Made by a program: the position numbers and the translations under genes
From: a virus
Lineage: Duplodnaviria > Caudoviricetes
DNA: 64,000 nucleotides
Virus record (IMG/VR): IMGVR_UViG_3300025934_000015
Location: 1-64,000 of that record
Reading direction: 5' to 3' (one strand)
The notes under the pieces: model-generated
What the model saw: only the letters and a program-made list of their open reading frames with translations
Databases searched by the model: none
What the model was told of the DNA's origin: nothing
Part shown: positions 10,264 to 33,373 of the stretch, in pieces
Numbering within the stretch: the first letter of the stretch is position 1
Layout of the letters: every line of letters starts with the position of its first letter

Positions 10264-10478
10264 GGGTCGATACCTAGCTCCTTGAAGGACCAATACTCAA
10301 TGGAAATGTAGCAGGCGCAGCGTGTCCCGCCACAAAAGCACCGAAAGAAATCGAGGGTGACGCCATCATCAAAAATGTCAATCACTTGTCCGGACTCGCC
10401 ACCACGCGTGAACTGATCATCGGGGACGGTAAGGACTTGTCCCAGATGCACGTCCGCCCGCGTGAAGGGCTGGGTCAT
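10260..10478 (-). CDS. Hypothetical protein
   Basis: Start/stop overlaps on both sides. Confidence 0.55.
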
Positions 10479-14573: not shown

Positions 14574-14816
14574 TCGTCGTCGTCCGCTTGACGTTCCGCC
14601 GCCTCGGTATGTTCAGGGCACCAGGGATGATACTGACGCACCGGTCGGCCATCGTCATCCTTGACCAGACGATAGCCGACGGGTGCGCCACAGCGTCGGA
14701 CCGGGAACTCGCCCGGTTTCGAGAAGATCCAGCCGCAACTATGTTTCATGCGTGGACCCGGAACCTATCATGGTTTAAAACCGGCGTCAAGGTCGGGCTC
14801 ACTTGGTCATGTGACC

Positions 14817-17399: not shown

Positions 17400-17843
17400 T
17401 CATTCCTTCGCGATGACTCCGGACGTGTACAACCGACGGAGACACGCGAGAATATTCCGACGCTCGTCGTGTTTGAGCGCGGCGACGATTTGTGGAGTAC
17501 GTTGACGAGGGTGCAGCAGGATATAGGTAAGGACACGTTCATTCAACGATCCGGCGCGATAGGTGGGCGCATCCTTGGCCACCCAGCCCGGCAGGACTAG
17601 GCGGGCCGGTGAATCCGGATGTGTATCAGACGGCGGACCGGCTGTCAAGGCCGTTTCCGCGTCCGCCTCCGACAAGATGGGCAAGATCGCGTCCGCGCCA
17701 ATCGACACGCCCTTCGGGAGCGTGCGATTGACGCGTGACCGTTTGTACTTCCGCAGGGGCACAATGTACGCGCGGCACGTATTGACGTGCTCCACGCGAT
17801 GTGGCGTGCCGTTGTAGAGAACCAGCAGGCCCGGCTTCAGCAC
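17400..17843 (-). CDS. Hypothetical protein, possible C-terminal winged helix
   Basis: Start overlaps the Ro60 stop; basic helical C-terminus. Confidence 0.55.
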   Translation of the reverse strand: MLKPGLLVLYNGTPHRVEHVNTCRAYIVPLRKYKRSRVNRTLPKGVSIGADAILPILSEADAETALTAGPPSDTHPDSPARLVLPGWVAKDAPTYRAGSLNERVLTYILLHPRQRTPQIVAALKHDERRNILACLRRLYTSGVIAKE

Positions 17844-19354
17844 TCCGTCGTTTCTACTTCACGCACGAAGTCGATGACGCGCTCCGACCACCCGTCCACA
17901 TGCGTCCACGGACCATACCCGACGCCCGTGCGATTGGACGCCACGTTGATCACGTAGCCCTTGCCCCTCGGGTTCGGAGGCGTATCCTGCGACTGTTCAT
18001 CGGTGATGACAATCAGGCGATCGTACGGTTCCTGATTGAGCCGACGGACCGCAGCGCCCAGCAGGGTCGCTGCCGCCGGAACCTGCGACTTGAGCGCATC
18101 CGCCAGGGCGATGCCGAGATAGTTCGGCACCTCTTTCATCACGCTCGAAAAGACGAAGATGCGGGACTCATCCGACAGCGCCCGGCAGATGATCGCCACC
18201 GCCGCTGCCGCATCCAGCCGTGAGATCTCCGACTTGGCTGAGATCGGCTGGTTCATGGACGCCGACCCGTCCACCAGCACGATCGTGCGACCCGGCAGGC
18301 GCTCCATGCTTCCGAGGCACTTGACCATGGCCACGTCCAGCGCATCCACGAACCGCGGCGCGTAGCGTGCCGCCGCCAGGAACCGGAAGGGCAACACGCG
18401 CTCGGCGTTCATCGCGATCAGGGCCTGACGGATCAGGGTGTCGTTGACGCCCGCCTCGGTCATGTTCCGCAGGTTGCGCAACAGAGCCAGCGCGCCCAGC
18501 TTCCGCTCCTCGATCAGACGCGTGAACGTCGCCTTCTTGTCGGCACCACCCGACAGCGCGACCTCCCACGTGTCCGGCGTCGGCAGCGTGCCATACACGA
18601 GCTGATTGAAGATCGACTCCTGCGTCCGCAGCTCGTTGACCGGCGAGAGCGTCGAGGCCCGCTCGGCCCGCCGTGCCGCCCTGGTGTAACCCTTCCGGCC
18701 GTCCGTCGGTTTGGCGTGCGACAGAAAGAGTACGTCGCGCAGCTTCACCGGCGTGTCGCGATTGTACTTGGCCAACTGATAGGGGCTGAACCGCGTGAAC
18801 GCCCGCGCTAGTCCCTTCTTGACCTGGGCCGACAGCGGCGTCCGCGTCAGGGTCACCGTCGTACCCGCGCCCTTGCACAGCCGACAGGGCGTGGTTCCAC
18901 GCTGGGCCCGCAGCCGCTTCAGGACCGACTGCGACGTGACCTTACACGCCGGGCACGGCACGCGCGGGCCCTGCCAGTAGAGCGCGAGGAACTCTGCCAA
19001 CTCGTCGGCGCGCTGAATGATGCCGTCCAGGGTCTCGGCCACGTAGGGTTTGAGGCTCGGCGTGCGCGCCATCTCCCGGACAATCAGCAGCGGCACGTGC
19101 CGCAGCTTCATCGCGGTGCGCGCTTCGATCGCCAGCTTCGCGACCGCCTGCGGATTCGTGGCCCCGACTTCGACGGTCAGCCGACGAATGCGGTCGGCAA
19201 TGCCTTCCCCCGACTCGTAGAATTCATCTTCCCACAGCAGGCAGGAAAGCACCGAGCGTCGCAGCGCCTGCAGCGGCGTGATCGTGCGGGTGAGTCCGCC
19301 CTCGTGCGTGGTGTCCGTGAACGGGTTGCTCGGGCCGATGTTGACGCGCGACAT
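17837..19354 (-). CDS. rsr: Ro60/Rsr TROVE-domain RNA-binding protein
   Basis: THEGG, LRRSVLSCLLWEDEFYESG, YQLAKY, LRDVLFLSHAKP, PDTWEV, ALLRNLRNM, LPFRF; vWA VDGSASM and LIVITDEQ. Confidence 0.95.
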   Translation of the reverse strand: MSRVNIGPSNPFTDTTHEGGLTRTITPLQALRRSVLSCLLWEDEFYESGEGIADRIRRLTVEVGATNPQAVAKLAIEARTAMKLRHVPLLIVREMARTPSLKPYVAETLDGIIQRADELAEFLALYWQGPRVPCPACKVTSQSVLKRLRAQRGTTPCRLCKGAGTTVTLTRTPLSAQVKKGLARAFTRFSPYQLAKYNRDTPVKLRDVLFLSHAKPTDGRKGYTRAARRAERASTLSPVNELRTQESIFNQLVYGTLPTPDTWEVALSGGADKKATFTRLIEERKLGALALLRNLRNMTEAGVNDTLIRQALIAMNAERVLPFRFLAAARYAPRFVDALDVAMVKCLGSMERLPGRTIVLVDGSASMNQPISAKSEISRLDAAAAVAIICRALSDESRIFVFSSVMKEVPNYLGIALADALKSQVPAAATLLGAAVRRLNQEPYDRLIVITDEQSQDTPPNPRGKGYVINVASNRTGVGYGPWTHVDGWSERVIDFVREVETTEC

Positions 19355-19392: not shown

Positions 19393-19534
19393 GTGGCCGG
19401 GAACTGACGACAATGGTGCTTGTGTAAACAATTGCTCTACCAACTGAGCTACACGCGGGTGTCTAATCCACGTGACCGGACTCGAACCGGCGACCCATTG
19501 TGTGTGAAGTACCCACTATCTTCGCCACGGCCAC
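19393..19534 (-). ncRNA. YrlA-like Y RNA 5 with complete permuted tRNA-like domain
   Basis: GTGGCCG/CGGCCAC terminal stem, GGCGAAG motif, T-arm GCCGG-TTCGAGT-CCGGT, loop-closed acceptor stem, D-arm TAGCTCAGTTGGTAGAGCA. Confidence 0.9.
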
Positions 19535-19539
19535 TGAGA

Positions 19540-19668
19540 TTGCCGGAGTCGAAAAATACTTCGCAATCAGTAACTCCAGATCACATCAGGAACTTGGCCA
19601 TGTTTTCACGCGGCAGAGCACCCTCAGATATGGAGGACGTTTCGCTACTAGATCTCCAACTCCGGCAA
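19540..19668 (-). ncRNA. Unassigned structured RNA inside the Y RNA array
   Basis: Long terminal stem TTGCCGGAGTTGGAGA/TTTTCGACTCCGGCAA enclosing a multi-hairpin junction; lacks the Y motifs; strand assumed from the operon. Confidence 0.6.
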
Positions 19669-19672
19669 ACAC

Positions 19673-19782
19673 GTTCCCGGGAACCGGCGACGACGGATCT
19701 ATGTGGAGTCGAACCACCAACAGTGAGCACGAGTCCCACCGCTGTCAACCAAGAAGTAGCCGTTCGTCTGCGCCACGGGAAC
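19673..19782 (-). ncRNA. Y RNA-like 4 (retains a T-loop hairpin)
   Basis: GTTCCCG/CGGGAAC terminal stem, GTGGCGCAGA...GCTACTTC, GTGG-TTCGACT-CCAC, 3' GTCGCCGGTTCCC. Confidence 0.8.
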
Positions 19783-19790
19783 CGATACAT

Positions 19791-19863
19791 GTTGCTGGGA
19801 ACTTGCGACAACGGGTGCTGTCTTCAGTATGAGTGAAGTAACCGCCATCTTCGCCACAGCAAC
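19791..19863 (-). ncRNA. Y RNA-like 3 (minimal, 73 nt)
   Basis: GTTGCTG/CAGCAAC terminal stem, GTGGCGAAGA...GTTACTTC, 3' TTGTCGCAAGTTCCC. Confidence 0.8.
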
Positions 19864-19873
19864 GTTTCACAAA

Positions 19874-20012
19874 TCCCGACGGGAACTAGCGACAACCGAG
19901 ATTTTTCGTGTGCTACCACTACACTACGTCCAAGTGTGACCCTGAACGGCCGGATTCGAACCGACCCCCCGTCATCCACAATGAAGTAACGGCTATCTAC
20001 GCCACGTCGGGA
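19874..20012 (-). ncRNA. YrlA-like Y RNA 2 with complete permuted tRNA-like domain
   Basis: TCCCGACG/CGTCGGGA stem, T-arm GTCGG-TTCGAAT-CCGGC, closed acceptor stem, D-arm TAGTGTAGTGGTAGCACA. Confidence 0.88.
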
Positions 20013-20021
20013 ACATGTATT

Positions 20022-20106
20022 GATGGCGGGAACTGGTGTCAGCGGTTGGGCTTGCGCCCATCTCTTTGCAAGGAAAAGAAGTAACCGCTCACGTCGCCAC
20101 GCCATC
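20022..20106 (-). ncRNA. Y RNA-like 1 (two small internal hairpins)
   Basis: GATGGCG/CGCCATC stem, GTGGCGACG...GTTACTTC, 3' CCAGTTCCC. Confidence 0.78.
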
Positions 20107-20120
20107 GATCAGAACTGCGG

Positions 20121-20150
20121 TTTATAACACGGAACAAAAACCGTTGTCAA
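20121..20150 (-). promoter_or_regulatory. Sigma70-type promoter of the Y RNA array/Ro60 operon
   Basis: TTGACA-N18-TATAAA with TGn extension, about 15 nt upstream of the first RNA. Confidence 0.8.
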
Positions 20151-20976: not shown

Positions 20977-21005
20977 GTTGTATCGTAGTTTTAAACTGCC
21001 GTCAA
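20977..21005 (-). promoter_or_regulatory. Sigma70-type promoter with AGTTTAAAAC spacer box
   Basis: TTGACG-N17-TACAAC. Confidence 0.6.
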
Positions 21006-21018
21006 GCGGTTCACGTCG

Positions 21019-21351
21019 TTATTTTTTCCCGTGGCGCGCCTTGAGCACGGTATACGCAGCCGTGACCTGTTTAAAGCGCTCGGTCGCCGCCTCAACCGTG
21101 AGTCCGTGGACGGCGCAGCGGTCCGGATGACACGCCATGGATGCCGCCCGGTAGGCACGCAGCAGCTCCAGGGCGGTCACGGCCGGGCCCACGCCCAGGA
21201 TGGCCTCCGGCGACCGGCTGCCCAGCGTGTCGCGCGCTTCATCCAGCCCCATGGTTGCGGTGAAGGCCTCGCGCCACGACCGCGCGTCGCCGTAGCCCTC
21301 GACGTCCGGATTGTACGTCCGGTAGCCCGACATGAACGGTCGCTTCGCCAT
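21019..21351 (-). CDS. Stand-alone J-domain (DnaJ-like) protein
   Basis: ILGV...RAYRAASMACHPDR...FKQVTAAYTVL. Confidence 0.85.
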   Translation of the reverse strand: MAKRPFMSGYRTYNPDVEGYGDARSWREAFTATMGLDEARDTLGSRSPEAILGVGPAVTALELLRAYRAASMACHPDRCAVHGLTVEAATERFKQVTAAYTVLKARHGKK

Positions 21352-21353
21352 GG

Positions 21354-21605
21354 CTACTTGGCCTCCGTCAGCACTTCATGTGGCTGCTCATGCGCGGGCA
21401 GCGCCAGCGCGCGGAGGTGTTTGCACGTGCGCGTGGTGCGCCAGCGCGGGCACGAACACCCCCAGTGCCGTTTCGTTTTGTGCTGGGACACCACATAAAC
21501 GCGATTGGATGTCTCCGACCGAATCTCGAAGCGGTTCGTCCACTGCGCGTTATCGGGCAGTTTGGACCCGCGGGGAATGCGGAGAACCGGTAGTGTGTTC
21601 GTCAT
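21354..21605 (-). CDS. SWIM zinc-finger protein
   Basis: WGCSCPRW...CKHL; start directly follows a repeat element. Confidence 0.8.
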   Translation of the reverse strand: MTNTLPVLRIPRGSKLPDNAQWTNRFEIRSETSNRVYVVSQHKTKRHWGCSCPRWRTTRTCKHLRALALPAHEQPHEVLTEAK

Positions 21606-21638
21606 GATCTGTTAGACGTGTCCCGAGGGTGAAAAGTT

Positions 21639-22166
21639 TCAGCGATAGATCTTTTTGCCGTTGCGGTCCGTCGTACCCTTCATCAGACCGTCAATGATGT
21701 AGCCGTCCACACCGACCTGTTCCATGAGCGCCTTGACCTCGGTCTCCACGGCCATCAGGGCGTCGTACGCGGCGTGCTGGCGCGCAATCGCGGCCTCCAG
21801 CGCGTCCAGCAGGCCCGAGTTGGTCAGCGCCGCCTGCCGGGCGGCGTTGCGTTCGTCACGTCCACTGTAGTGGCTCGTATTGTGCTCCAGCAGGAATGCC
21901 GGATCCATGACGACGTTCTTCTCGGCGTAAGCAATCAACAGACTATGGCCCTGGTTGCCCCCGGTCTGGCTGTAGCCGCCCCACTCCAGATGGGTCATGC
22001 CGTAGGCCTTGCGCATCCGCAGATCCGGCGCGCCTGCCTCCTGCGCCATCATCTTCTGAACGTCCCGCTCCGTGATGCGCTTGCCCGCATGGCGCTCGAA
22101 GTACGCGCGGATGGCGTCCGCGACGGTGGTGTCCTCCATGCGACTGGTGAGAATGTCCTTGATCAT
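21639..22166 (-). CDS. Hypothetical protein, leaderless sigma70 promoter
   Basis: TTGACA-N18-TAAACT-N6-ATG; stop lies within the next repeat element. Confidence 0.75.
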   Translation of the reverse strand: MIKDILTSRMEDTTVADAIRAYFERHAGKRITERDVQKMMAQEAGAPDLRMRKAYGMTHLEWGGYSQTGGNQGHSLLIAYAEKNVVMDPAFLLEHNTSHYSGRDERNAARQAALTNSGLLDALEAAIARQHAAYDALMAVETEVKALMEQVGVDGYIIDGLMKGTTDRNGKKIYR

Positions 22167-22217
22167 GATGACAGTTTACCTCGGGAGAAAAATAGCTGTC
22201 AAGTACGAAGTTTGAGA

Positions 22218-22403
22218 TCAGTCGAGTCCGTCGATCTGACGGACGAACAGCACCGACTTGCCGTCCGACGCGGTCACGAGGTAGTCGCGCCCTTCGCGCG
22301 TGATGGTGGACGAATAGCCCTTCTCCGTGGCCAGTAGGAACCGAAAGGCCTCGGCGTCCTTCTTGGGCGTGGGGCTGGAGACGGTCTGCACAATGTTGAT
22401 CAT
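22218..22403 (-). CDS. Hypothetical cassette protein
   Basis: ATG abuts repeat element. Confidence 0.7.
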   Translation of the reverse strand: MINIVQTVSSPTPKKDAEAFRFLLATEKGYSSTITREGRDYLVTASDGKSVLFVRQIDGLD

Positions 22404-22435
22404 GATCTGTTAGACGTGTACCGACGGTGAAAAGT

Positions 22436-22633
22436 TCAGGCGAGATTAGCGCGGTCCCAGGCCTTCAACCATGCATCCAGGGCAGCAATCACGCCCGCGG
22501 TATCCTTGCCTTTGATGTGGGCGCAGATGGCCGGGTCCAATGCGGGCACGCGCATTCGGCCGTCCGCGAAGGCTTGCGCGCCCAGGGCGGCGGCGGCAGT
22601 GGTGTCCACAAGGTGTGTGCGCTGTTTTCTCAT
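22436..22633 (-). CDS. Hypothetical cassette protein
   Basis: ATG abuts element; TGA lies in the next element. Confidence 0.7.
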   Translation of the reverse strand: MRKQRTHLVDTTAAAALGAQAFADGRMRVPALDPAICAHIKGKDTAGVIAALDAWLKAWDRANLA

Positions 22634-22665
22634 GATCGGTTAGACGGATCCTGCGGTGAAAAAGT

Positions 22666-22917
22666 TCACCGTGGGACCAAACGATAGACGTGCTCCACAA
22701 TGAATCCGGTGGTTTTCCAGGCCTTAGACCGTGGGTGGATAGCGGAGACGTGCCCGCTCACCTTCACCAGTCGGCCGCTGGCCACCAGGGCGTCCGCCGC
22801 CTTCGCCTCGCGCGTGCCGAACCGGCGCTTGTGCTCGCGGCCGAACACCACGGTGACGTGTCCGCCCTGACGTTCGGCGGTCGCCAGGAGCTGTTCCATG
22901 TGCGCGGTGACGGTCAT
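22666..22917 (-). CDS. Hypothetical cassette protein
   Basis: ATG abuts element; TGA lies in the next element. Confidence 0.7.
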   Translation of the reverse strand: MTVTAHMEQLLATAERQGGHVTVVFGREHKRRFGTREAKAADALVASGRLVKVSGHVSAIHPRSKAWKTTGFIVEHVYRLVPR

Positions 22918-22949
22918 GATCTGTTAGACGTGTACCGACGGTGAAAAGT

Positions 22950-23222
22950 TCACCGTCGGCGGATGACAATCTTGTGCAGTGGATTGCCGTCGTTGAGATT
23001 GACCAGCGGATCAGCCAGTCGGTTGGCGTGACGCGCGAAAAAGACGCGGGTCTGGCCAGCCGCGAAACCGTTCAGCAGGCGGAAGGTCACGCGGACGGCG
23101 TGCGCGTAGTCTGCGCCCAGCGGCGTGATGTCGGTGATCTGGCCACTGACGTGCGCCGCCACGTTGCGCGCCTTGCAGCCCTTCTCGATAACAATTTTGT
23201 CCCCGACGGTCAATGTGGTCAT
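22950..23222 (-). CDS. Hypothetical cassette protein (beta-rich)
   Basis: ATG abuts element; TGA lies in the next element. Confidence 0.7.
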   Translation of the reverse strand: MTTLTVGDKIVIEKGCKARNVAAHVSGQITDITPLGADYAHAVRVTFRLLNGFAAGQTRVFFARHANRLADPLVNLNDGNPLHKIVIRRR

Positions 23223-23273
23223 GATCTGTTAGACGGATCCCGCGGTGAAAAGTTTCACCGCGGTGCGAAAAAT

Positions 23274-23543
23274 TTAGCGGCCGACCATGCCTCGGCGGAC
23301 CGCTGGCAGAATCCGGCTGTCCCAGTCGGCCAGCATGACCCGCAGGTTGGCCGTCCGGTAGCCACCGACGTTGTCCCGCGGCGTCCCCACGCGGCCCGGG
23401 TGCGGCAGGAACACGTACCAGGAGCGGTCATCAAAGGGGCCGCTGCGGTCCACGCCACAGTTCCCGATGTACCCGAATGAGACGGTGGGGAATTCCGCTT
23501 TCAATGCGTCCACGCGGGCGTCCAGGTCGGGGATACCGGTCAT
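23274..23543 (-). CDS. Hypothetical protein (MTGIPDLDA...)
   Basis: GGAGG RBS and ATGA overlap with the upstream cassette gene. Confidence 0.7.
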   Translation of the reverse strand: MTGIPDLDARVDALKAEFPTVSFGYIGNCGVDRSGPFDDRSWYVFLPHPGRVGTPRDNVGGYRTANLRVMLADWDSRILPAVRRGMVGR

Positions 23544-23758
23544 TTGGCCTCCAAAAACGCGATCAGGTCCAGCGTGGCCTCCGCCTTCGTCGCGCGCCAT
23601 TCGCCGCCGACGGAGGCGTCACGGCTGGACGACCACCGCCATCCGCTGGCAAACTTTTCGACGTAGTACTTCGTTTCAATCATCTCCAGGGCAACGGTCG
23701 TACGCCAATCGTTGTAGACGTAGCGGCCAGCGGCCAGTCGTTGCAGTGTGATCGTCAT
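23540..23758 (-). CDS. Hypothetical cassette protein
   Basis: ATG abuts element. Confidence 0.7.
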   Translation of the reverse strand: MTITLQRLAAGRYVYNDWRTTVALEMIETKYYVEKFASGWRWSSSRDASVGGEWRATKAEATLDLIAFLEAK

Positions 23759-23806
23759 GATCTGTTAGACGGATCACCGCGGTGAAAAGTTCCACCGCGG
23801 TTTCGG

Positions 23807-24004
23807 TTATTCTTCGCTGACCGCGGGCTGGCCGTCACGGCTGTAGGCACTGACGCCTATGAAGCCTCCGCGTTCCTCTTCGGCCAGCGCCTCCTGACGG
23901 CGGACCCAGCGCTCCATGGCAGTCTCGGACGGAAAGCTGCGCTCGCGCGTGACCAGCTCGCCCTTGCGGTTGAAGGCCTGATAACGGATGGTAACGGATG
24001 CCAT
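23807..24004 (-). CDS. Hypothetical protein (MASVTIRYQ...)
   Basis: GGAGG RBS; second gene of its cassette. Confidence 0.65.
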   Translation of the reverse strand: MASVTIRYQAFNRKGELVTRERSFPSETAMERWVRRQEALAEEERGGFIGVSAYSRDGQPAVSEE

Positions 24005-24006
24005 GA

Positions 24007-24201
24007 CTACTTCGCCTCCTGCGCCAGCGCCAGACGCCACGCCTTGCGTGCGGCAAAATACAACTCGTTCGCCGCATTCGCCGGAGCCATTTTCGACATC
24101 CGCTTCGGGGCGCGCATGTAGCGCGTATTGATCTGCTTGAACGTGCGGCCAGTCTTCGCCACGTCGAGGGCGGCGTATTCCAGATGGTTATATGCGCTCA
24201 T
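24007..24201 (-). CDS. Hypothetical cassette protein
   Basis: ATG abuts element. Confidence 0.7.
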   Translation of the reverse strand: MSAYNHLEYAALDVAKTGRTFKQINTRYMRAPKRMSKMAPANAANELYFAARKAWRLALAQEAK

Positions 24202-24260
24202 GATCTGTTAGACGGATCACCGCGGTGAAAAGTTCCACCGCGGTTCGCCTTTTGTTTCGC

Positions 24261-24548
24261 CTACCACTTGGCGTAGTCTGGCAGACCTTCGTAGATGCGA
24301 TCACAAATCTGTTCGTAGACCAGCGCGCGGTCGATCTTGCCGTCGGCGCGCAGCTCCATGGCCACGGCCTTGTTACAGGCATAGTTCTTGAGGTTGGCCA
24401 CGACGGTCACATAACCCTTCGGGCGGGTCGGGAAGATTCCGCGCGCCACCGTGTAGGGCACGCCGCCGGATAGGCCGCAGGTCTTCCAGAAGTCCCACAG
24501 GTCGGCCGGGGTCATCGCGTCGAGGTTGGGCACGTTGCTGTCAGTCAT
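24261..24548 (-). CDS. Hypothetical cassette protein
   Basis: ATG abuts element. Confidence 0.75.
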   Translation of the reverse strand: MTDSNVPNLDAMTPADLWDFWKTCGLSGGVPYTVARGIFPTRPKGYVTVVANLKNYACNKAVAMELRADGKIDRALVYEQICDRIYEGLPDYAKW

Positions 24549-24603
24549 GATCTGTTAGACGGATCACCGCGGTGGAAAGTTCCACCGCGGTGTAACAAAA
24601 CTG

Positions 24604-25020
24604 TTAGAAGCTGGGATTGCGTTCGTTGTGCGTGCCAGCGGTCATGTACCAGGTCCCATTCGCGCGCCATGAGGCAGTCTGGCGCAGCCGGAAGAAGACG
24701 GTGCCGTCTGAGGTCTCCACGCGGCGCAGCGACTTCGAGACCTTGATAATCTGGCCAGCCGGGTAGTAGTCGCCATTGAACCCGCGGGACACGTCGCTGC
24801 CGACCGTCGGAGCCTCGATGACGTCATAGCGCGGCGAGGTGTGACTGCCCTTGTCTGCGGCCACGTGGAGACGGCCCGTCAGGGCGGTGGCGTCCGCTGC
24901 AATCTCCTCAGCGTGCGCCATGTTCAGAATGTCGTTCCGGTTGATCGCGCCCTGGTCATGGCCCTCGCCCAGGGGGTGAACTGCCGTCAGGGTGCCGTTG
25001 GTGTAAGTGAAAGTCAGCAT
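24604..25020 (-). CDS. Hypothetical cassette protein (MLTFTYTNG...ERNPSF)
   Basis: ATG at 25020 follows the element; the ORF-track start at 25059 reads through the promoter. Confidence 0.75.
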   Translation of the reverse strand: MLTFTYTNGTLTAVHPLGEGHDQGAINRNDILNMAHAEEIAADATALTGRLHVAADKGSHTSPRYDVIEAPTVGSDVSRGFNGDYYPAGQIIKVSKSLRRVETSDGTVFFRLRQTASWRANGTWYMTAGTHNERNPSF

Positions 25021-25081
25021 ATGAATGGTTAGACGGATCACCGCGGTGAAAAGTTCCACCGCGGTTTCGTTATTGTTTCGC

Positions 25082-25333
25082 CTACGCGGTAAACCGCACT
25101 TCGATCCACGAGTCCTTCGGCCACGCGTGCCAGCGGTCCGCCGTGGCCACCACGACAGCAGCCGGGAGCGCGCGCTTGACGGCGGCGGCGACCGTCTCCT
25201 CGGTCATGCCGTGGTGGTAGAAGTAGCCGCGCTTCGCCACAAAACAGCGCTCCTTGCGGCTGAACCCAACCGCCAGACCCGTACCCTCCAGAGCCGCGCG
25301 TACCGCCTTGAGCGTCATCAGTGTGTTCGTCAT
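25082..25333 (-). CDS. Hypothetical cassette protein
   Basis: ATG abuts element. Confidence 0.7.
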   Translation of the reverse strand: MTNTLMTLKAVRAALEGTGLAVGFSRKERCFVAKRGYFYHHGMTEETVAAAVKRALPAAVVVATADRWHAWPKDSWIEVRFTA

Positions 25334-25386
25334 GATCGGTTAGACGGATCACCGCGGTGAAAAGTTCCACCGCGGTGACAAAAGTG

Positions 25387-25692
25387 TTAGACGAGACCTT
25401 CGCGTTCCTCTCGCGTGTCCCAGGGCCTTTCGCTGGCGGCGTCCGCGCGCTCCTGCGCCCAGCGCTCAAACGCCGCCGTGGCCTGCCGGACAATGTCGGT
25501 CCACTGCGCCTCCGTGACGGTCACGGCTTCCGCCACGGTCACGTGGCCCTCGGCGTCCTCCGTGTAGATGATGACCACCTCCGGCTGATCCTCGCCCGGA
25601 TAGGCCATGACACGCACGTGCGCGGTATGCTGGTCCTCGCCCTGGTCGTACGGAATCTCGAACGTCGTCGTGAGCGGTTTGGATGTCGTCAT
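25387..25692 (-). CDS. Acidic hypothetical protein, leaderless sigma70 promoter
   Basis: TTGACA-N17-TAGGCT-N6-ATG. Confidence 0.7.
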   Translation of the reverse strand: MTTSKPLTTTFEIPYDQGEDQHTAHVRVMAYPGEDQPEVVIIYTEDAEGHVTVAEAVTVTEAQWTDIVRQATAAFERWAQERADAASERPWDTREEREGLV

Positions 25693-25727
25693 AGTTCCAG
25701 CCTATCGCACCGCGGTGCGATTGTCAA
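25693..25727 (-). promoter_or_regulatory. Sigma70-type promoter whose spacer is a perfect 18-bp palindrome
   Basis: ATCGCACCGCGGTGCGAT lies between TTGACA and TAGGCT. Confidence 0.75.
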
Positions 25728-25736
25728 ACCGACGTT

Positions 25737-26531
25737 CTACAGTACGTGGTCCCACCGCACATGCCAGTAGCGCCCATCTTCCGTCAGTGACTGATAGGCA
25801 ATCACCAGCGTGCGACCAATCCACGCCGCTGGGTCAGCCGCAAACTTCCGCCGCCAGTCGGCGTTTAGTGTTTTGACGGTCACTTCGACGCCGCGGGCGT
25901 CGCGCGCCTTGACCTTGGCGTACGGACCGAGTTTGGCCGCTTCGTAGCCGGTAATGGTCACGGGTGCCGCCTTGGGCCGTTTGAACTTCACCCACTGCGG
26001 GGATCGTGCGCCTGCCTGATAGATGGCGCTCCAACGTTTCACCACCGCGCCTTCCTGTCCACTCTGGAACCACGATTGCAGCAGGGCGGCGTCGGGCGCG
26101 AACTGGTCGGCCACTGTGACCGCGCCGTCCGGATCGGTGTGCATGACGGCCAACACCAACAGCTCCCGGCGCTCGCGGAAGGGTTTCGCCTGGGCGCTAT
26201 GCGGTCCGACCATCAACATGTCGAATAGCACGCAGCGGACTAGATGCTGCTTGGACGCGTCCTTGACCGCGGTACACGGCATGCCGGGAATGTAGAACTC
26301 CCCATCGTAGTACCCCGGAGCCAATCGCGCCAATTGCATGGCAATCTGGACCGGAATGTCGGCGGCGTTGCCGTAGCGCGACCACGCGACGGCCGCGCCA
26401 CCCTCGGCCACCTGAATGTGCCGCCGCTGCCCATCGTATTTACGCTCCATGACAAACTTGTCATTGGTGTAATGCGCCAGGGAGTCGCCTTCTGGTAGTG
26501 CAGACGCGAGCATGGGCTTAATGAATGCCAT
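25737..26531 (-). CDS. ATP-dependent DNA ligase (minimal)
   Basis: ERKYDGQR (KxDG), YDGEF, LFDML, EGAVVK, WVKFK; promoter TTGACA-N17-TAGACT-N6-ATG. Confidence 0.9.
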   Translation of the reverse strand: MAFIKPMLASALPEGDSLAHYTNDKFVMERKYDGQRRHIQVAEGGAAVAWSRYGNAADIPVQIAMQLARLAPGYYDGEFYIPGMPCTAVKDASKQHLVRCVLFDMLMVGPHSAQAKPFRERRELLVLAVMHTDPDGAVTVADQFAPDAALLQSWFQSGQEGAVVKRWSAIYQAGARSPQWVKFKRPKAAPVTITGYEAAKLGPYAKVKARDARGVEVTVKTLNADWRRKFAADPAAWIGRTLVIAYQSLTEDGRYWHVRWDHVL

Positions 26532-26567
26532 ACCAGCAGTCTAGCAGAATGCCCCCGCGGTGTCAAA

Positions 26568-29500
26568 TCACCCGAGGTTAGACGGCCGGATGCTGGTTAA
26601 TGTCATGAATTGCTCCAACATCAGATCGAAGTGCGTGGCCGGACGCCGTTCGACTTCCACCGCGTTCAGCTTCGCGGCAGCCTCCGGGATTTCGGTCTCG
26701 TGGTTGAAGTAGACGGGGAAGAGCTGGCCATTGTCATTGGCCTTGAACAGGACGCGGATGAGTGTCATGTCCATGAGACGCGCCCGTGCGCCACATCTGA
26801 CAGTTGGCCCAGCCGGGACTTGGCGGCGTCGCACTCCCGCTCCAGGTACGTATAGACGTCCCGCTTGCTCCAGCCAGCGCGGCGCATGATCGCGACGAAT
26901 TCATCGAGCGTGAATTCCTCAGCGGTCCAGCGGTCCAGCAACGTCGTAATGACGTCCTCGGGTGAGCGCATGACTTATCGTCCTGGATAGACGTCGTCGG
27001 TCAGGATGGCAATCTCGATCCGTGTGAGGCCTTCGACAGCCGCAAATGTCGCTTCGGCGGCGGGTGTTAGGAGCCACCGCGCGGCATCCTTAATGGATGC
27101 GAAGTAGCGATCCACTTCATGCTCCATCGGTCGAATGGATCGCTCAGTGTCCGTGAAGTAGTGGATCACGACCGTGATGTCGCTACTTTTCTGCGGTGAA
27201 CTTGGCACAGCCGCCCTCCTGTTTGATGACGGCCGGTGTCACCGCAGTCCCGACGTTATTGGTGACGATGTAGAGCATCATGCCGTTGCCACGGTCACAC
27301 AGGGCCGTGACATCGTGCGAGGGATTGCCACTGATGAGGGTGTGCGCCTGTACTTGCAACCTCTCGCCCCACGGTTCTGGTGTGACCGGCAGTGGTGTGG
27401 CAATGATGACGTGGATGTTCAGGTAGGATTCGATCAATATGATGAGGATGGCCGCGAACACCATGCCGAGAATCTCGGGTCGTCTCATTTGCCCACCTTG
27501 GTCTGAAGCGTGGTGTCGGACCGGACCGTGCGCGCTCGCATCCGCTCGGCGCGCAGGGATTCCAGCAGGTCGAGGGCACGCTCGAAGATGGCATGTCGCT
27601 CGCCCAGTGGCGCGCAACAGTTTTGCCGGGTGATTAAGACCTGCTCAGCGGCATCGAGCTGATCACTGTCGTACTCATAGACGATGCCGACCATGTAGTG
27701 GTCCACGCGCGCCACCGCCTCGAAGGCGTCCGCCAGTTGATTGATGAGTATCTGAGACATACGCATCAGCCTAGCGTGGTGGATAGAGAACGTCAAGCGT
27801 TTTGTTGGCGTCACGCACGGATGGAAGATCATCGCCCGCGATGTCGCTGAACCGAGGCGCGCTGTAGCGCCAGATGGCCCGGTACGCGCCCCACTGGTCG
27901 TCGGTCAGGGCTCCACGATAATGGGCCTGCCGAACGTAGCCGAAATCGCGAGTGAGCGCCCACACCGGCACGTTAACCGCCATGGCGTTCGCCAGGAAAA
28001 CGAATACCGACCATGCCATTGGCCAGATGCCGTGCGATCAGCATGGCAAACTCTTCCATGCTGGAGCCGGTGGACACTTCAACGGCGGGTTTACCGGGGA
28101 CGATCCCGAGGTTGGGAAACGTGCGATCGGGTGTCGCCTCCGCACGGATGATAAAGAATCGCGCGGGCCACCGCTCTTCCAAGATCGTGACGTCCTGTCC
28201 GTCCTCGGATGTTTTCGGCAGGGTCACAATCTGCACGGGTTTGCCATGCTCGAAGGGTCCGACCGGATGGTAAAGATCGCCAAACACGGCACGATCGCGA
28301 TCGTCTGCGCCGTAGAGGCTTTCAAGCGCGGGAATCGGGAACTTACGCATGCTGGTCTTCGCGCAGTCGCTGCGCAATCTCCGCCGCAATCGCTTGCAGT
28401 TCTCGAGCTGACGTCGGCACGCCGCGCTGACCGAAGGCCGACGTACTGATGTAGAGGACCACCTCCGCGCCACGTGCGCCCATCTGCGCCGTGACCGGCA
28501 GCGTAATGGCCATCGACAACGGCGGCGCAATGCGGTGTTCGATGTCTGTTACGTGGCTATCGTCGATCGTGAACGTCATGGGACTCCTGTGGGACTTCAA
28601 TGATGTCAGCCGTGGTTAGCTTCCGTCCGCAGGACTTGCGCGGCGCGCGCCATCCCGCGGTCTGGTGCTTCCACCCATGGAACCACAGCCCGACGTTGCA
28701 GCCGCAGTGCCGACAGATCAATTTTGGATGGCGCGTACCACGAGGCATTACTCGCACTCCGTGGGCCATGTCCCGGCTTCAGGGCAAGGCCACGTGTTGC
28801 CACTGGTTTGGCAGGTGTCGCACCACTCCGTGTGGACGGTGCCGTCACACGTGACCACCCATTCGTGCTCGTGCGGCGTCTCGGTTAAGGTCTCCATGAT
28901 CAATTGCCTTTGTACAGCAGATAGGTTTTGAAGCCCATGCCGGTCCGTTCTGCCTCAGACTTCTCGCGCAGCGTGTAGTGGTCGCGCATGATGTATGCAC
29001 CACCCTGCTGTGGCAGTCCCTGCACGAGGGCCCAGTTGGAATCATCGTTGTAGCGCAATGAGTCAACCGAAATGTCCGTGGAGGTCGGTACCGGATCCAT
29101 GGTCCGGTAGTCGGAAAAGCGCTGCTCGATGACTTCAATGTCGCCATGCTTCCGCTTGACCGCCGCCAGGTACTTTTGAAGATCGGAGATGGTCATGATC
29201 ACTCCGGAATGGTCACATACACGACCTCGCCACCAGGGCGGTACGTGCGGTAGAGCGTTGCGCCCGTGACGGCACAGATCTTCGTGGCTGGCGTGTTCAG
29301 TGGATGGTAGTGGCTACAGCCACACCCGAACGACCGGCAGGGTTGTGCGCCGCTGGCGTGTCGGGTGTGTTCGGTCCACGGATGACCACAGGCACACCGC
29401 GGTGGATTAACTGCATACATACAGCACCTCAACGCCCGCAGCGGCAGCCCGCGCGACCGCTTTGGCCTTGGCCTCGCCGTACGATCCGCGCTCCCAGAGC

Positions 29501-31147
29501 ACGTGGTCGAGGTAGTCACGGCGGTTGGGATTGACAGTGCAGAATGCCCAGCTCCCATTGCCGGAGGGGCGGCGCGCGTGTTCGCGCTCAAATTCCCGGG
29601 TGACGACTTCGACGGACGATACCAGCATAGGCACGGACATTACCTCAGTTTAAAACCGCTGTCAAGATCGGGTCTGGCATCTGCTGTTGAGAATGGTCAC
29701 GCACCGTTTGCACTCGGGATTGTGGCCATAATCGGCATCGTAGTGCACGGGAATGCGGATGCCGCAGAGCGTGGTCTGCTCGTCGTTCAGCCGGTGCACG
29801 CGGGACCAGCGGCCACCCTGGTGCACCTGCCACATGATGACATCCGGCACGGCGTCCGGGTCCGGCGACTGGTCCATGAGTTCTTGCAGCGTGCTAGCCA
29901 CGTTTCACCACCTTGAAGCCGGTCGTCTGGCGCAGCATGTCCTTGATGAGCGGCCACTGCGCCTCCGGGATGAATTCGTCCGACAGCGTGACAAAGCGGC
30001 AGTTGCCTTCCGGCGCTTCCGCTTCGATCTTGACCTGGACCCCACCGTCCTTTTTGGTGCACGTCACCAGACGGCCACTATTCTTGGCGCGCGGTTCATA
30101 CGCGTTGACGGTAAACTCCGCCACGAAGGACGTGAACGTCGTGCTGTTGGTCATGTAGTGTTAGACGGATCACCGCGGTGAAAAGTTCCACCCGATCTTT
30201 CGCCTACGTTTCGCCACCGCCAGTCGATGCTTGAGCGGTCACGCCGTCGATCTCGTTCTGGCACTTCTGGCACCAGCCGTTGCAGTGACCACGCGCGCCA
30301 TTGAGCGGCATCCCGAGGCCCCAATAGAGCGCCATCTTTTTCAACATGGCCTCGTTGGTGATTTGCTTCGGTCGCGGGCCTTTGGAGAAGTCGTGGCGCA
30401 TCAGGTGTCCACCGCGGACGCACTGGAACGTGGCGACCGTACCCTCCAGCTTCACGCAGTGCTGTTTGCCATTGACCGCGCCTACAGGCACGGGGATTCG
30501 TCGGCCCTGCTTCGTTTTATACGCCATCAGGCGTCCCTCCCATGCTTGAACTTCCACAGCACGACCGCCAGGGCTGCCACGTCGCGGTCGCGGTGTGAGC
30601 CGCTATCCTTGTAGTGCACGAGGTTGCGCAGGGTGGTATCGGCCACGTCAATCGTGGCAGTCAACGCGCCGTCCGGAATATCGTTCACGCACTCGCGGAC
30701 AAACCGCTCGACATAATCACGCGTCATCAGCCTTCTCCTGTGCCTCCAGCGCGTCGTTGACATCCTCGATGTTGGCCGTGACAGGTACATTGTCGATACC
30801 CGTCCGGATCCAGTATGCCTTTTGGGCCGCTTCGGTCAGCATTTGTACCAGTTCGTCATCGACGTAGTAGTGATCCGCACTCACCACGATCGTGATCTTT
30901 TGAATCATGATTCCCCCAACGTCCGGAACGGGGGCAACTGGTCGAACGGGTCGGCCTCGCGTTCCATGGACTGCGCCAGCGCCTTGATCTCGCGCTTGGT
31001 CTGTTTGATCTCGCCCTGAAGTTCTCGGACCACGCGCATCCGGTCGCGGTAGCGGCGTTGCAGCGAGGCCAGCTTATTGGCCAGTCGAATCATGTCGGCG
31101 GGGAGGGCGGTCTGGGACCGCCCTCCACGTTTCACAGTTTTGGCCAT
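26568..31147 (-). other. Run of about 18 small co-oriented hypothetical ORFs (e.g. 26765-26971, 26975-27208, 28343-28600, 28900-29202, 29407-29640, 29662-29901, 29894-30154, 30717-30908, 30905-31147)
   Basis: Chained start/stop overlaps on the minus strand; several Cys/His motifs; no family recognised; individual starts uncertain. Confidence 0.6.
30152..30191 (-). promoter_or_regulatory. ECF-type promoter element copy 11 abutting the ATG of 29894-30154
   Basis: GGAACTTTTCACCGCGGTGATCCGTCTAACACTAC-ATG. Confidence 0.85.
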
Positions 31148-31150
31148 GGC

Positions 31151-31936
31151 CTACTCCACGTCGATCACGTCACCGTCGATCGTATCGTCGGCGTCGCCAT
31201 CGAGGTCCGTGTGGATCTGGAAGGCGCGCCCCAGTTCCAGGGACGCGCGGAACAGGCGCACGGGGCTGAGGTCACGCGCGGCGCGCGTCATGGCATTGTG
31301 GAGGCCCCACAGCGTGCGGGGCTGGCAGTCGGTCATCTCGTCGCTGGGCTTGAAGTAGTAGCGGCTGACGTCGGTGAACAGGTGCAGCGGCAGGACGCCC
31401 GCGTTGAACACGTCGAAGATCCGGTTCTTAGCGTCCATGTCGCTGATGGCGGTCAGCTCCAGGATCTCGATCTGGAGGTCCAGCACCTGCGCCTGCTCCA
31501 CGAATTTGTCGAAACCGACGCCGACGACTTCGGTGAGGTCGAGGCCGGAGGTGGACTTGCGGCGGAAGGCAATCATGTCGCCGCTCATGGTCATGTTGTC
31601 GCAGACAAACACGCGCGTGCCTGCCACACCACTGATGGCCATGAGCTGGTCCGTGGAGGACCGGAAGCCGAACGACAGGCCACGGCCGGTCTTGAGACTG
31701 GCGAAGTCGAGGACGCCGAACAGCGCGGCCTGATTGCGGGCCAGCGCGTACTGTTCGCGCGTGACCGTCATGCCGCGTTTGGCAATCTCGGCCAGTAAGG
31801 TGTCGATGAGGCGGGCGTGATGGACCGGCTTGTGACGACTGCCCAGGGCCATCGGCTCGGGGATCGTGCGGATCTGGTCGAGCGTGACCAGCTTGGACTG
31901 GAACTTCGGACTGTGGGCGCTCAGCGTGGAAGACAT
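31151..31936 (-). CDS. DUF932/DUF945-like protein
   Basis: HKPVHHARLID, GTRVFVCDNM, RTLWGLHNAMT; GAAAGGA RBS before ATG at 31936. Confidence 0.75.
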   Translation of the reverse strand: MSSTLSAHSPKFQSKLVTLDQIRTIPEPMALGSRHKPVHHARLIDTLLAEIAKRGMTVTREQYALARNQAALFGVLDFASLKTGRGLSFGFRSSTDQLMAISGVAGTRVFVCDNMTMSGDMIAFRRKSTSGLDLTEVVGVGFDKFVEQAQVLDLQIEILELTAISDMDAKNRIFDVFNAGVLPLHLFTDVSRYYFKPSDEMTDCQPRTLWGLHNAMTRAARDLSPVRLFRASLELGRAFQIHTDLDGDADDTIDGDVIDVE

Positions 31937-31975
31937 ACGTTCGTGTCCTTTCAAGAAACCGTGTTGACTGAAACT

Positions 31976-32004
31976 ATCCTAGCGCGGTTTTAAACTCCGG
32001 TCAA
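31976..32004 (-). promoter_or_regulatory. Sigma70-type promoter with AGTTTAAAAC spacer box
   Basis: TTGACC-N17-TAGGAT. Confidence 0.65.
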
Positions 32005-32048
32005 GGCTTATTTCACAAAAAGTTTTGGGCGGTCAGCCAGACCGACGG

Positions 32049-32264
32049 TTAATCGTCGTTCTCGGTCAGCCGTTTTCGGCACGTGTGGCAGCGGTAGCCG
32101 GTGCCGTCGTAGTCCGGGTGGTCGGCGTGGTAGCTGAAACAGTTACCGCGACCATCGGGCCCGTCCCCGACGGACCCGTACCGGCGATCGGCCGTGACCT
32201 CCGATGGAAAACAGCGGTTGCAAAAGTCCAGCGGGTCGTTGGCGCTCGTGTAGATGCGGGGCAT
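32049..32264 (-). CDS. Small Cys-rich (Zn-binding) protein
   Basis: FCNRCF...YRCHTC. Confidence 0.6.
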   Translation of the reverse strand: MPRIYTSANDPLDFCNRCFPSEVTADRRYGSVGDGPDGRGNCFSYHADHPDYDGTGYRCHTCRKRLTENDD

Positions 32265-32266
32265 GA

Positions 32267-32509
32267 TCACTCCGTGAAACACTGAAACGAACAATCGGGG
32301 AGCGCGCGGTGTTCGGGTGTGCGGAAGTCGGGACGGCCAAACGCGCCACACTGCCACCACCCTGCTAAGGCCAGATTCCGCCGGAGCGCGGTGCCACACT
32401 GCGGGCATTTGCCGGAGGCTACCACGCGTCCCGCTTCGGCCTTGGCGGCGATACGCTCCTGGGCGCTCTTCCGCAGATACGCGCGTGACAGTCGCTGTTG
32501 TTTGGTCAT
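32267..32509 (-). CDS. Small Zn-ribbon protein (MTKQQRLS...)
   Basis: GGAG RBS; CPQCG...WQCG...CSFQC. Confidence 0.65.
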   Translation of the reverse strand: MTKQQRLSRAYLRKSAQERIAAKAEAGRVVASGKCPQCGTALRRNLALAGWWQCGAFGRPDFRTPEHRALPDCSFQCFTE

Positions 32510-32520
32510 CGGTACTCCGG

Positions 32521-32557
32521 AAAAAGGTGGGCCCGCTGCAATCGCCCGGCGGGCCCG
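32521..32557 (-). terminator. Intrinsic terminator-like hairpin within a leader
   Basis: GGGCCCGC-N12-GCGGGCCC followed by ACCTTTTT. Confidence 0.55.
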
Positions 32558-32624
32558 GTCTCCACGTCCGCTGACCGCGCCATGCGGCCTCTTGGTTCCC
32601 GTCACGCTCGTAACGGTCTGTAGG

Positions 32625-32665
32625 GTTAGACGGATCACCGCGGTGAAATGTTCCCCCGCGGTGAT
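32625..32665 (-). promoter_or_regulatory. ECF-type promoter element copy 12, not followed by ATG
   Basis: GGAACATTTCACCGCGGTGATCCGTCTAAC. Confidence 0.8.
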
Positions 32666-32674
32666 CAAAAAGTG

Positions 32675-33205
32675 TTACGCCAGCGCGGCGCGCAGGGTCT
32701 TCATGCGACCCGCGTGCGTGCGCGCTTCCGCCGCCTTGTGCAGCGTGGCCGGGATCGACACCATACGGCGGAAGTCCTGCTCGGCCAGATAGTTCCCGGC
32801 AGCCTTCCGGGTCCGCAACACCGCCAGCGCGGCGCGCACGGCGTCCCTGGTGTCCATATACTCCTTGGCGGTGGCACGCGCCTTGCCCTCATCAACAAAT
32901 TTCACTTTCGGCACGCCACCCATATCGATCGTCACCAACACGGTCCGGCCGGTGCCGTGGTTGACGCCGCCGCAGGCGCACTCGCAGAGCGGCCCACGCG
33001 CGCCCGTGCAGCGGCCATCGCAGGCGCAGCGCTCCTCGACGCGGACCAGCCGGTCGCCTTCGACGCGGCCCATATTCTCAATAGTCCCGTCGCAGATGTC
33101 GCAGCGCCAGTCGGCGGACGGCACGGTCTCGACGGACGCCACCGTCAGGCAGAGCGTGCAGCGGATAAACCAGCGATTCACCGTCGGTCCGTTGTGTGAT
33201 GTCAT
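32675..33205 (-). CDS. Cys-rich hypothetical protein, leaderless sigma70 promoter
   Basis: CTLC, CDIC, CACDGRCTGARGPLCECACGGVNHG; TTGACA-N17-TAGTCT-N6-ATG. Confidence 0.8.
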   Translation of the reverse strand: MTSHNGPTVNRWFIRCTLCLTVASVETVPSADWRCDICDGTIENMGRVEGDRLVRVEERCACDGRCTGARGPLCECACGGVNHGTGRTVLVTIDMGGVPKVKFVDEGKARATAKEYMDTRDAVRAALAVLRTRKAAGNYLAEQDFRRMVSIPATLHKAAEARTHAGRMKTLRAALA

Positions 33206-33373
33206 GACGCTAGACTATCGCGGTTTTAAACTGGTGTCAATAGACACCGCGCTCGGTCACATGCCTATGGCGGAAGGACAGCGAAGCCGTGTCGGCTTGA
33301 CTTTGTGACGCAAAGTCGAGTGGGAAAAACGTTAGGAATGTGGCGGGTTTTTCCGTGCAGACCGTCTTCGGCC

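Follow-up and report, generated by a model that had tools for sequence, protein, structure and literature searches.

Putative ECF-type promoter and hairpin repeats flanking predicted leaderless gene cassettes in an uncultured soil phage

Introduction

Phages of the T4 type carry composite terminator/promoter repeats, termed PeSLs, which flank ORFans in RB49/phi1, T4/PST and KVP40/nt-1 and support modular shuffling; in RB49, a crossover has been mapped to the hairpin loop (PMC2839356, PMC4122927). Here we describe twelve copies of a short repeat in the first 64 kb (64,000 nucleotides, referred to as the window) of the single 120,838-bp IMG/VR virus record IMGVR_UViG_3300025934_000015, a lytic, uncultured soil phage with 60% G+C. 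Each copy resembles a promoter of the RpoE/AlgU class of extracytoplasmic function (ECF) sigma factors. To our knowledge, PeSLs are the best-documented means by which phages trade small accessory genes, and descriptions of them are confined to T4-type phages with sigma70 promoters. The same cassette logic appears here in an unrelated soil phage, with an ECF-type promoter, a hairpin over the -35 box and predicted leaderless starts. We consider it probable that the repeats are composite ECF-type promoter/hairpin units that are read by a host sigma factor, give rise to leaderless messages and are shuffled by recombination.

The elements are PeSL-type cassettes built from other parts, not a new category. 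Like PeSLs, they are short stem-loop and promoter units repeated between small ORFans in a hyperplastic early-gene region, their relatives differ by cassette insertion, deletion or replacement at the repeats, and chimeric repeats occur, with a loop crossover in RB49 and also in a metagenomic relative of the present phage (L012). The promoter, however, is ECF-type here and sigma70-type in PeSLs. The hairpin overlaps the promoter, with the -35 box in its loop, whereas the PeSL hairpin lies upstream of the promoter. The ATG sits at the predicted +1 without a Shine-Dalgarno (SD) sequence, whereas a PeSL has an SD sequence and then a start codon; no U-tract follows the stem; and the phage is not T4-like, its head genes being nearest to those of Brevundimonas siphoviruses. 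Terminator activity and mini-circles arising by recombination belong to the PeSL.

The promoter class is established in bacteria, with the consensus GAACTT-N16/17-TCtgA for AlgU (PMC10651043) and GAACTT-16/17-TCCAAA for RpoE, the Shewanella rpoE promoter reading GAACTTTTTCAAAGTACGCGAGTCTAC (PMC4336711). The phage elements share a -35 box of GAACTT(TT), a spacer of 17 nt between GAACTT and TCTAA (16 nt in one copy), a -10 box of (G)TCTAA and a predicted start 6-7 nt after it. An earlier sequence-only reading of this DNA had proposed the RpoE/AlgU match, and the fit of both boxes and the spacing to the published consensus bears it out (PMC10651043, PMC4336711). The elements differ from the bacterial promoters in lying on a phage without sigma or anti-sigma genes, in forming twelve near-identical copies within 11 kb, and in apparently driving leaderless ORFans rather than envelope-maintenance genes.

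Two further systems bear comparison. The phage-encoded sigma factors of phiEco32 (gp36) and phage 7-11 have their own promoter class (PMC8948821, PMC4331800). In those phages, as here, a phage-specific class of repeated non-sigma70 promoters controls one gene block, but they encode the sigma factor and none is detectable in the present record. The lambda cI message made from PRM is leaderless (PMC10491246), and here too the start is predicted at the A of the ATG with no ribosome-binding site; cI is a single regulatory case in lambda, whereas this one genome has 11 ECF-type and at least 8 sigma70-type units.

Results

Twelve repeats lie in one region of the genome

The exact pattern GAACTT-N16-18-TCTAA occurs nine times in the window, always on the minus strand and between 22410 and 30188; shuffled sequences contain it 0.03 times on average and never more than once. 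Allowing up to two mismatches adds the copies at 21639, 23256 and 32653, for a total of 12, which is the number of promoter-like copies reported by the sequence-only reading. Together they span 21603-32669, all on the minus (coding) strand, and each lies directly upstream of an open reading frame (ORF) or a leader. A search of the whole 120.8-kb record with GAAC-N16-18-CGTCTAA and at most one mismatch returned these 12 copies and three background matches, with 1-10 matches in shuffles; beyond such background-level matches, the record holds no copy outside 21603-32669. The copies do fall in the region 21603-32665 that had been described as an array, but a continuous array is present only at 21.6-25.4 kb, which contains ten of them. 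The other two, at 25.4-32.7 kb, sit amid sigma70-type promoters and SD-led genes.

We aligned 16 copies, the 12 of the window and four from L012, for the analysis of conservation and covariation. All 16 have the -10 sequence CGTCTAA without change, although the two lineages share no more than 72-86% identity; the AAC of the -35 box varies little or not at all, in contrast to the spacer. Ten of the 12 window copies have GAAC, the others having AAAC (21639) or GAAAC (23256), and all four L012 copies read GGAAC.

Start codons directly follow the putative promoters

An ATG follows TCTAA in 11 of the 12 copies, at a distance of 6 nt in ten and 8 nt in one (25056), and none of these has an SD sequence, in agreement with what had been claimed. 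The description of every unit as leaderless holds for these 11 and fails for the copy at 32653, which has no ATG and would instead drive a structured leader of ~100-110 nt. The copies with a 6-nt gap read CGTC TAA CAG ATC ATG: three codons ahead of the ATG, the -10 box itself supplies an in-frame stop (TAA), and of the two codons in between, CAG and ATC, neither can serve as a start. This fixes the ATG and excludes an SD sequence in these copies, and homologous proteins in L012 start at the same ATG. Since most internal genes of the phage carry AAGGAG or GGAGG, the lack of an SD sequence is specific to the first genes of units. In four copies the TGA of the upstream gene overlaps the -35 box (stop codons at 21639, 22436, 22666 and 22950), and these are the four positions at which the start of the next -35 had been seen to be formed by a stop codon.

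With the A of the ATG taken as +1, positions -34 to -31 would be occupied by the GAAC of GGAAC or TGAAC and positions -13 to -7 by CGTCTAA, which is the geometry of RpoE/AlgU-class ECF promoters. Eight sigma70-type promoters of the form TTGAC(A/G)-N17/18-TAnnnT (mostly TAGnnT) are also present in this genome, again with an ATG 6-8 nt after the -10 box and no SD sequence, and L012 has three further sigma70-type leaderless promoters. That two unrelated promoter classes are aligned alike to their start codons is difficult to account for other than by initiation at the ATG in both. Overall, predicted leaderless starts are the rule for the first genes of this phage in both promoter classes, and we infer that +1 is the A of the ATG or lies no more than 2 nt from it.

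A covarying hairpin overlaps the -35 box

The unit consensus is (stop codon)-linker-ACCGCGGTG-GAACTTTT-CACCGCGGTG-ATC-CGTCTAA-CAGATC-ATG. The conserved unit reaches upstream to the preceding stop codon and is 45-75 nt long, with a GGCGAAAC-N-GGCGAA module within the upstream extension of several copies. An inverted repeat flanks GAACTTTT, giving a hairpin of 9-14 bp in which GAACTTTT, the -35 element, is the loop and the promoter spacer is the 3' arm; the predicted RNA folding free energy is -10.8 to -25.1 kcal/mol in 10 of the 12 copies.

Read along the minus strand, the first copy (32626-32669; -22.2 kcal/mol) has GAACAT as its -35 box and the usual CGTCTAA, and is the one not followed by an ATG. 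The second (30152-30204) has the weakest of the hairpins (-10.8 kcal/mol) ahead of GAACTT-N17-TCTAA, 6 nt and an ATG. Hairpin, promoter and ATG are all present in the third (25331-25383; -24.9 kcal/mol) and in the fourth (25018-25072; -19.6 kcal/mol), where the gap to the ATG is 8 nt. Copies 5 (24546-24598; -25.1 kcal/mol), 6 (24199-24251) and 7 (23756-23808; both -19.6 kcal/mol) are followed by copy 8 (23220-23272; -18.9 kcal/mol), whose GAAAC can be read either as a 16-nt spacer to AAC or as one mismatch. Copy 9 (22915-22967; -20.5 kcal/mol) has the arms CCGACGGTG/CACCGTCGG, which are compensated relative to the main type and of which the left lies inside the upstream coding sequence. Copy 10 (22631-22683; -15.5 kcal/mol) has an interrupted hairpin and the compensating indels that had been noted, which prove to be 1-nt changes in the spacer. 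The last two copies are compact and lack a hairpin: copy 11 (22401-22438; -2.3 kcal/mol) consists of the promoter boxes only, and copy 12 (21603-21641; -2.4 kcal/mol) of AAACTT-N17-TCTAA, with the upstream TGA overlapping the -35 box.

The sequence-only reading had described the spacer as variable in sequence and constant in length. The length is indeed held, but the sequence is not free: the spacer doubles as the 3' arm of the hairpin, is identical in seven of the 12 copies, and differs by one base in an eighth (24582). Where the arms do change, they change together. Three unrelated arm pairs occur, ACCGCGGTG/CACCGCGGT and CCGACGGTG/CACCGTCGG in the window and CCCTACAGG/CCTGTAGGG in L012, and in the 16-copy alignment both partners change in seven of ten hairpin pairs. 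Covariation scores 0.297, compared to at most 0.16 for controls with slid partners, and none of 500 shuffles reaches this value. This covariation of the arms across copies points to selection on the structure, and makes a sequence-specific operator unlikely. Since a unit's hairpin precedes the predicted +1 of that unit, it would be present only in RNA from the unit upstream.

Two further patterns accompany the hairpin. A TAG-GCGAAAC-N3-5-GGCGAA(A)C module stands between the stop codon and the hairpin at ~25057-25083, 24236-24262 and 30189-30215, and in copies of L012 and L007; on the opposite strand it forms a T-rich tail after the hairpin that resembles an antisense terminator. All 12 genomic occurrences of the 10-mer CACCGCGGTG fall between 21.5 and 32.7 kb. 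The occurrence at 25708 lies in a sigma70-type promoter spacer, within the palindrome TCGCACCGCGGTGCGA, and that at 29395 stands alone after a stop codon; these two may be relics of recombination between units.

Relatives differ by whole cassettes

An exact-pattern scan of metagenomes yielded three relatives, L012, L008 and L007, which allowed comparison over ~7 kb of related sequence; the exact element motif has no match in IMG/VR. L008 matches the window with 100% identity up to and again beyond the interval 25693-26637, but within it the identity drops to ~65%. This interval is exactly one cassette, a sigma70 promoter with a gene for a 264-aa ATP-dependent DNA-ligase-like protein, so that the difference reads as a clean allelic swap of a single cassette. 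Copy 3 is identical in L008. In L012 the ligase-like gene is retained (92% amino-acid identity) and is followed by four other small genes at the place of the window's 101-aa cassette; L012 also has one extra sigma70-type leaderless cassette, and lacks the 138-aa and 95-aa cassettes, the gap falling exactly between two repeats. One L012 repeat is chimeric, with the left arm of one type and the right arm of another, and its crossover would therefore lie in the GAACTTTT loop. In L007, which retains copy 2, two cysteine-rich genes take the place of a 107-aa gene.

The proposal that the cassettes are shuffled is thus supported by these comparisons: content differs in all three relatives, breakpoints fall at repeats, and cassette order is not invariant. 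Integron arrays combine attC sites with an integrase; in contrast, no Phage_integrase or Resolvase domain was found in the 120.8-kb record, and general homologous recombination between the repeats is the likely mechanism. A 1-kb metagenome contig, L009, carries the same element at 500-545, with an upstream TGA overlapping the -35 box; the small gene downstream has an SD sequence, and the contig probably comes from a more distant relative with a non-leaderless unit.

No sigma factor is detectable in the phage genome

CheckV estimates the completeness of the 120.8-kb record at 100%. Six-frame searches with Pfam Sigma70_r2, r4, r4_2 and Sigma70_ECF and with TIGR02937 found no sigma factor in it, and a profile of 22 bacterial ECF sigmas, run unfiltered against all 1441 six-frame ORFs, gave a best E value of 0.77. 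Weak matches to sigma r4 were rejected, all lying in a coiled-coil, tape-measure-like protein of 1138 aa. No T7-type RNA polymerase domain was matched in the phage, in a search whose control was silent too. The absence of a sigma factor, earlier noted for the window, thus extends to the complete genome as seen by five hidden Markov models and a custom profile. The sequence-only reading had allowed either a host or a phage sigma, and the genome-wide result favors the former: with no phage sigma found, a host ECF sigma is the likeliest reader of the elements.

The main alternative is that these are phage-specific middle promoters, also leaderless, read by host core polymerase with a divergent phage factor or by a sigma70 re-targeted in the manner of T4 MotA/AsiA. 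The copies are confined to one region and far more uniform than a bacterial regulon, phage sigmas with their own promoter classes are known from phiEco32 and 7-11, and most early proteins are ORFans without a Pfam match, among which an unrecognised factor could hide. Against this, boxes and spacing closely fit a host sigma class, the searches above detect no sigma factor in a record whose completeness is estimated at 100%, and a reader of a -35 AAC and a -10 CGTC should keep recognisable sigma2 and sigma4 domains. We judge a phage factor to be unlikely.

The affinities of the phage give little indication of its host. Its portal and capsid proteins are 36-37% identical to those of the Brevundimonas phages StAshley and MaInes, both siphoviruses, the portal also matches that of Halorubrum phage Hardycor1, and no T4-like match is found among the matches listed. 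The DNA polymerase is ~26-28% identical to those of phages of Proteobacteria and 49% identical to that of one IMG/VR contig, L005, which does not carry the element motif. We found no near relative among GenBank phages, and no IMG/VR relative of the 264-aa ligase-like protein. Bacterial loci with a 20-base motif (L010, L011/L013, L014 and L015) were set aside, their number being about that expected by chance and no ECF sigma gene lying beside them. In L010 the motif is followed after 5 nt by the ATG of a VIT-vWA gene whose nearest protein clusters are mostly from Pseudomonadota, a weak hint to the host only. No matching autoregulatory motif precedes any of 29 ECF sigma genes in two metagenome-assembled genomes.

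Discussion

We propose that a host RpoE/AlgU-like ECF holoenzyme reads the promoters, which would tie the ORFan block to the envelope stress that infection provokes. Messages would start at or near the A of the ATG, with neither leader nor SD sequence. Lacking a ribosome-binding site at the ATG, read-through transcripts would be translated poorly, and a gene would be on only when its own promoter fires. Being at the 3' end of the RNA made from the unit before it, the hairpin probably acts on that RNA, by attenuation, by termination or by protection of the 3' end. As patches of homology, the repeats would also let recombination insert, delete and swap cassettes, as PeSLs do in T4-type phages. 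A more specific version is that a sigma-less lytic phage has wired about a dozen ORFans to a host envelope-stress ECF sigma, with leaderless starts making the array translationally insulated and stress-sensing and the hairpin tying each unit's end to the beginning of the unit that follows; we offer this tentatively, as possible and rather doubtful.

The repeats might instead act at the RNA level in long early transcripts, as REP-like exonuclease stops or as guides for an endonuclease that cleaves immediately ahead of each ATG, with leaderless cistrons arising by processing rather than from promoters. Early RNA of T7 is processed at intergenic hairpins, and here a covarying hairpin, indicating selection on structure, lies at the 3' end of each upstream cistron. 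However, two window copies and one L012 copy lack the hairpin and keep both boxes intact, the invariant positions are the -35 and -10 boxes rather than the stem, the distance to the ATG is the same as for the bona fide sigma70-type promoters of the genome, and the loop GAACTTTT is held even without a stem. This combination makes a purely RNA-level element quite improbable. Least credible of all is that the CACCGCGGTG boxes, whose confinement to 21.5-32.7 kb includes the stray sites at 25708 and 29395, are operators of a dimeric phage regulator or recombinase sites like attC, itself a hairpin-forming repeat between cassettes, with a secondary likeness to promoters: we rejected the operator model since the arms CCCTACAGG, CCGACGGTG and ACCGCGGTG covary, are wholly different between copies and pair only with their own partners, as expected of a structure and not of a protein site, and the integron model since the genome encodes no tyrosine or serine recombinase.

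Several points weigh against the host-read promoter/hairpin units that we favor. The position of +1 and promoter activity itself rest on sequence, and the phage matches point to no one host, so that a host ECF sigma matching these promoters is an assumption. ECF sigmas are normally held inactive by anti-sigma factors; the 12 promoters would need an activated sigma, and no phage factor for this activation was identified. The hairpins have no U-tract on the coding strand, although the phage has a terminator-like hairpin with TTTTT elsewhere, which makes a terminator role doubtful; several copies have their T-rich tail on the other strand, and two have no hairpin at all. The seven identical spacers could stem from recent duplication or gene conversion rather than from selection. 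Finally, the shuffling comparison draws on ~7 kb of related sequence.

Should a host ECF sigma indeed read the promoters, the phage would sense host envelope stress and time a gene set without a transcription factor of its own, which raises the testable question of whether phages exploit the stress responses that they provoke. Moreover, strictly leaderless first genes under both promoter classes would offer a natural system for testing insulation from read-through. For annotation, the repeats can serve as markers of true start codons and of the limits of transcription units where ORFans abound.

Cassette genes and genomic setting

The element array lies in the ORFan-rich upstream part of a minus-strand gene block that runs from 33205 to 1, and the leader, the cassette genes and the four individually described window promoters in this and the next two paragraphs are on that strand. 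An all-against-all blastp of the cassette proteins gave no pair below E = 0.01, in line with their description as mutually unrelated, and almost all are ORFans without a Pfam match. Copy 1 is followed by a leader or small RNA of ~100-110 nt (32520-32619) that, as read from the sequence, ends in GGGCCCGC..GCGGGCCC and then TTTTT, like a terminator. It has no Rfam match, could be a small RNA or an attenuator leader, and precedes an SD-led ORF of 79 aa (32269-32508).

Copy 2 precedes an ORFan gene of 86 aa (29894-30154) that is 97% identical in L007. In the continuous array, the 83-aa ORFan at 25082-25333 has a 73% identical homologue in L012 that likewise directly follows an element, and the next two ORFans, of 138 aa (24604-25020) and 95 aa (24261-24548), are those absent from L012. 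Two-gene cassettes follow. In the one at 23807-24201, the first gene (64 aa, 24007-24201) is leaderless and has a homologue of 49% identity in L012, and the second (65 aa, 23807-24004) is SD-led; in the one at 23274-23758, a leaderless gene of 72 aa (23540-23758) is coupled to one of 89 aa (23274-23543) that has the SD sequence GGAGG. The 90-aa gene at 22950-23222 ends in the codons CGA CGG TGA, which double as the 5' arm of the following element's hairpin and as the beginning of that element's -35 box. The TGA also overlaps the next -35 box in the 83-aa gene at 22666-22917 and the 65-aa gene at 22436-22633; a 61-aa gene occupies 22218-22403. The last cassette (21019-21605) pairs a leaderless 83-aa gene (21354-21605), whose product has a weak SWIM zinc-finger match (Pfam E = 0.006), with an SD-led gene for a 110-aa J-domain protein (21019-21351; DnaJ E = 2e-10).

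Among the sigma70-type promoters, the one at 33203-33240 (TTGACA-N17-TAGTCT, 6 nt, ATG) serves the first gene of the minus block, of 176 aa (32675-33205). That at 26529-26566 drives the ligase-like gene (25737-26531) whose whole cassette is swapped in L008, and that at 25690-25727, with TCGCACCGCGGTGCGA in its spacer, drives the 101-aa gene at 25387-25692. A further promoter at 22164-22202 (TTGACA-N18-TAAACT, 6 nt, ATG) lies inside the ECF-type array and precedes a 175-aa gene (21639-22166). Beyond the window, sigma70-type leaderless promoters are found at ~117354, 104601, 103957 and 102325. Seven sigma70-type promoters have in common a GTTT(T/A)AAAC sequence in the spacer just after TTGAC (window 33223-33231, 31987-31995, 29648-29656, 20988-20996 and 14773-14781; genome 100458-100466 and 116912-116920), which could be an operator for an early-gene regulator.

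The genome codes for a portal, a major capsid protein, a tape-measure-like protein, a DNA polymerase, a primase-helicase and helicases. A Ro60/TROVE protein gene at window 17837-19354 is preceded by about four repeats of 30-40 nt (19496-20107, in the region 19393-20150) that have no Rfam match at gathering score. GATC sites within the element were considered as a special feature and rejected, as GATC is over-represented twofold across the whole genome (916 observed compared to 436 expected); a gene for a 453-aa DNA methyltransferase lies at 8932-10293. The phage also encodes tRNA-Cys, tRNA-His and tRNA-Gly together with a Thg1-like tRNA-His guanylyltransferase (Pfam E = 8e-28; L003 15017-15181 and L004 2764-3516), and a one-piece tmRNA of the ordinary type (Rfam, 88.6 bits) on the minus strand at L004 10276-10623, corresponding to genome positions 112276-112623.

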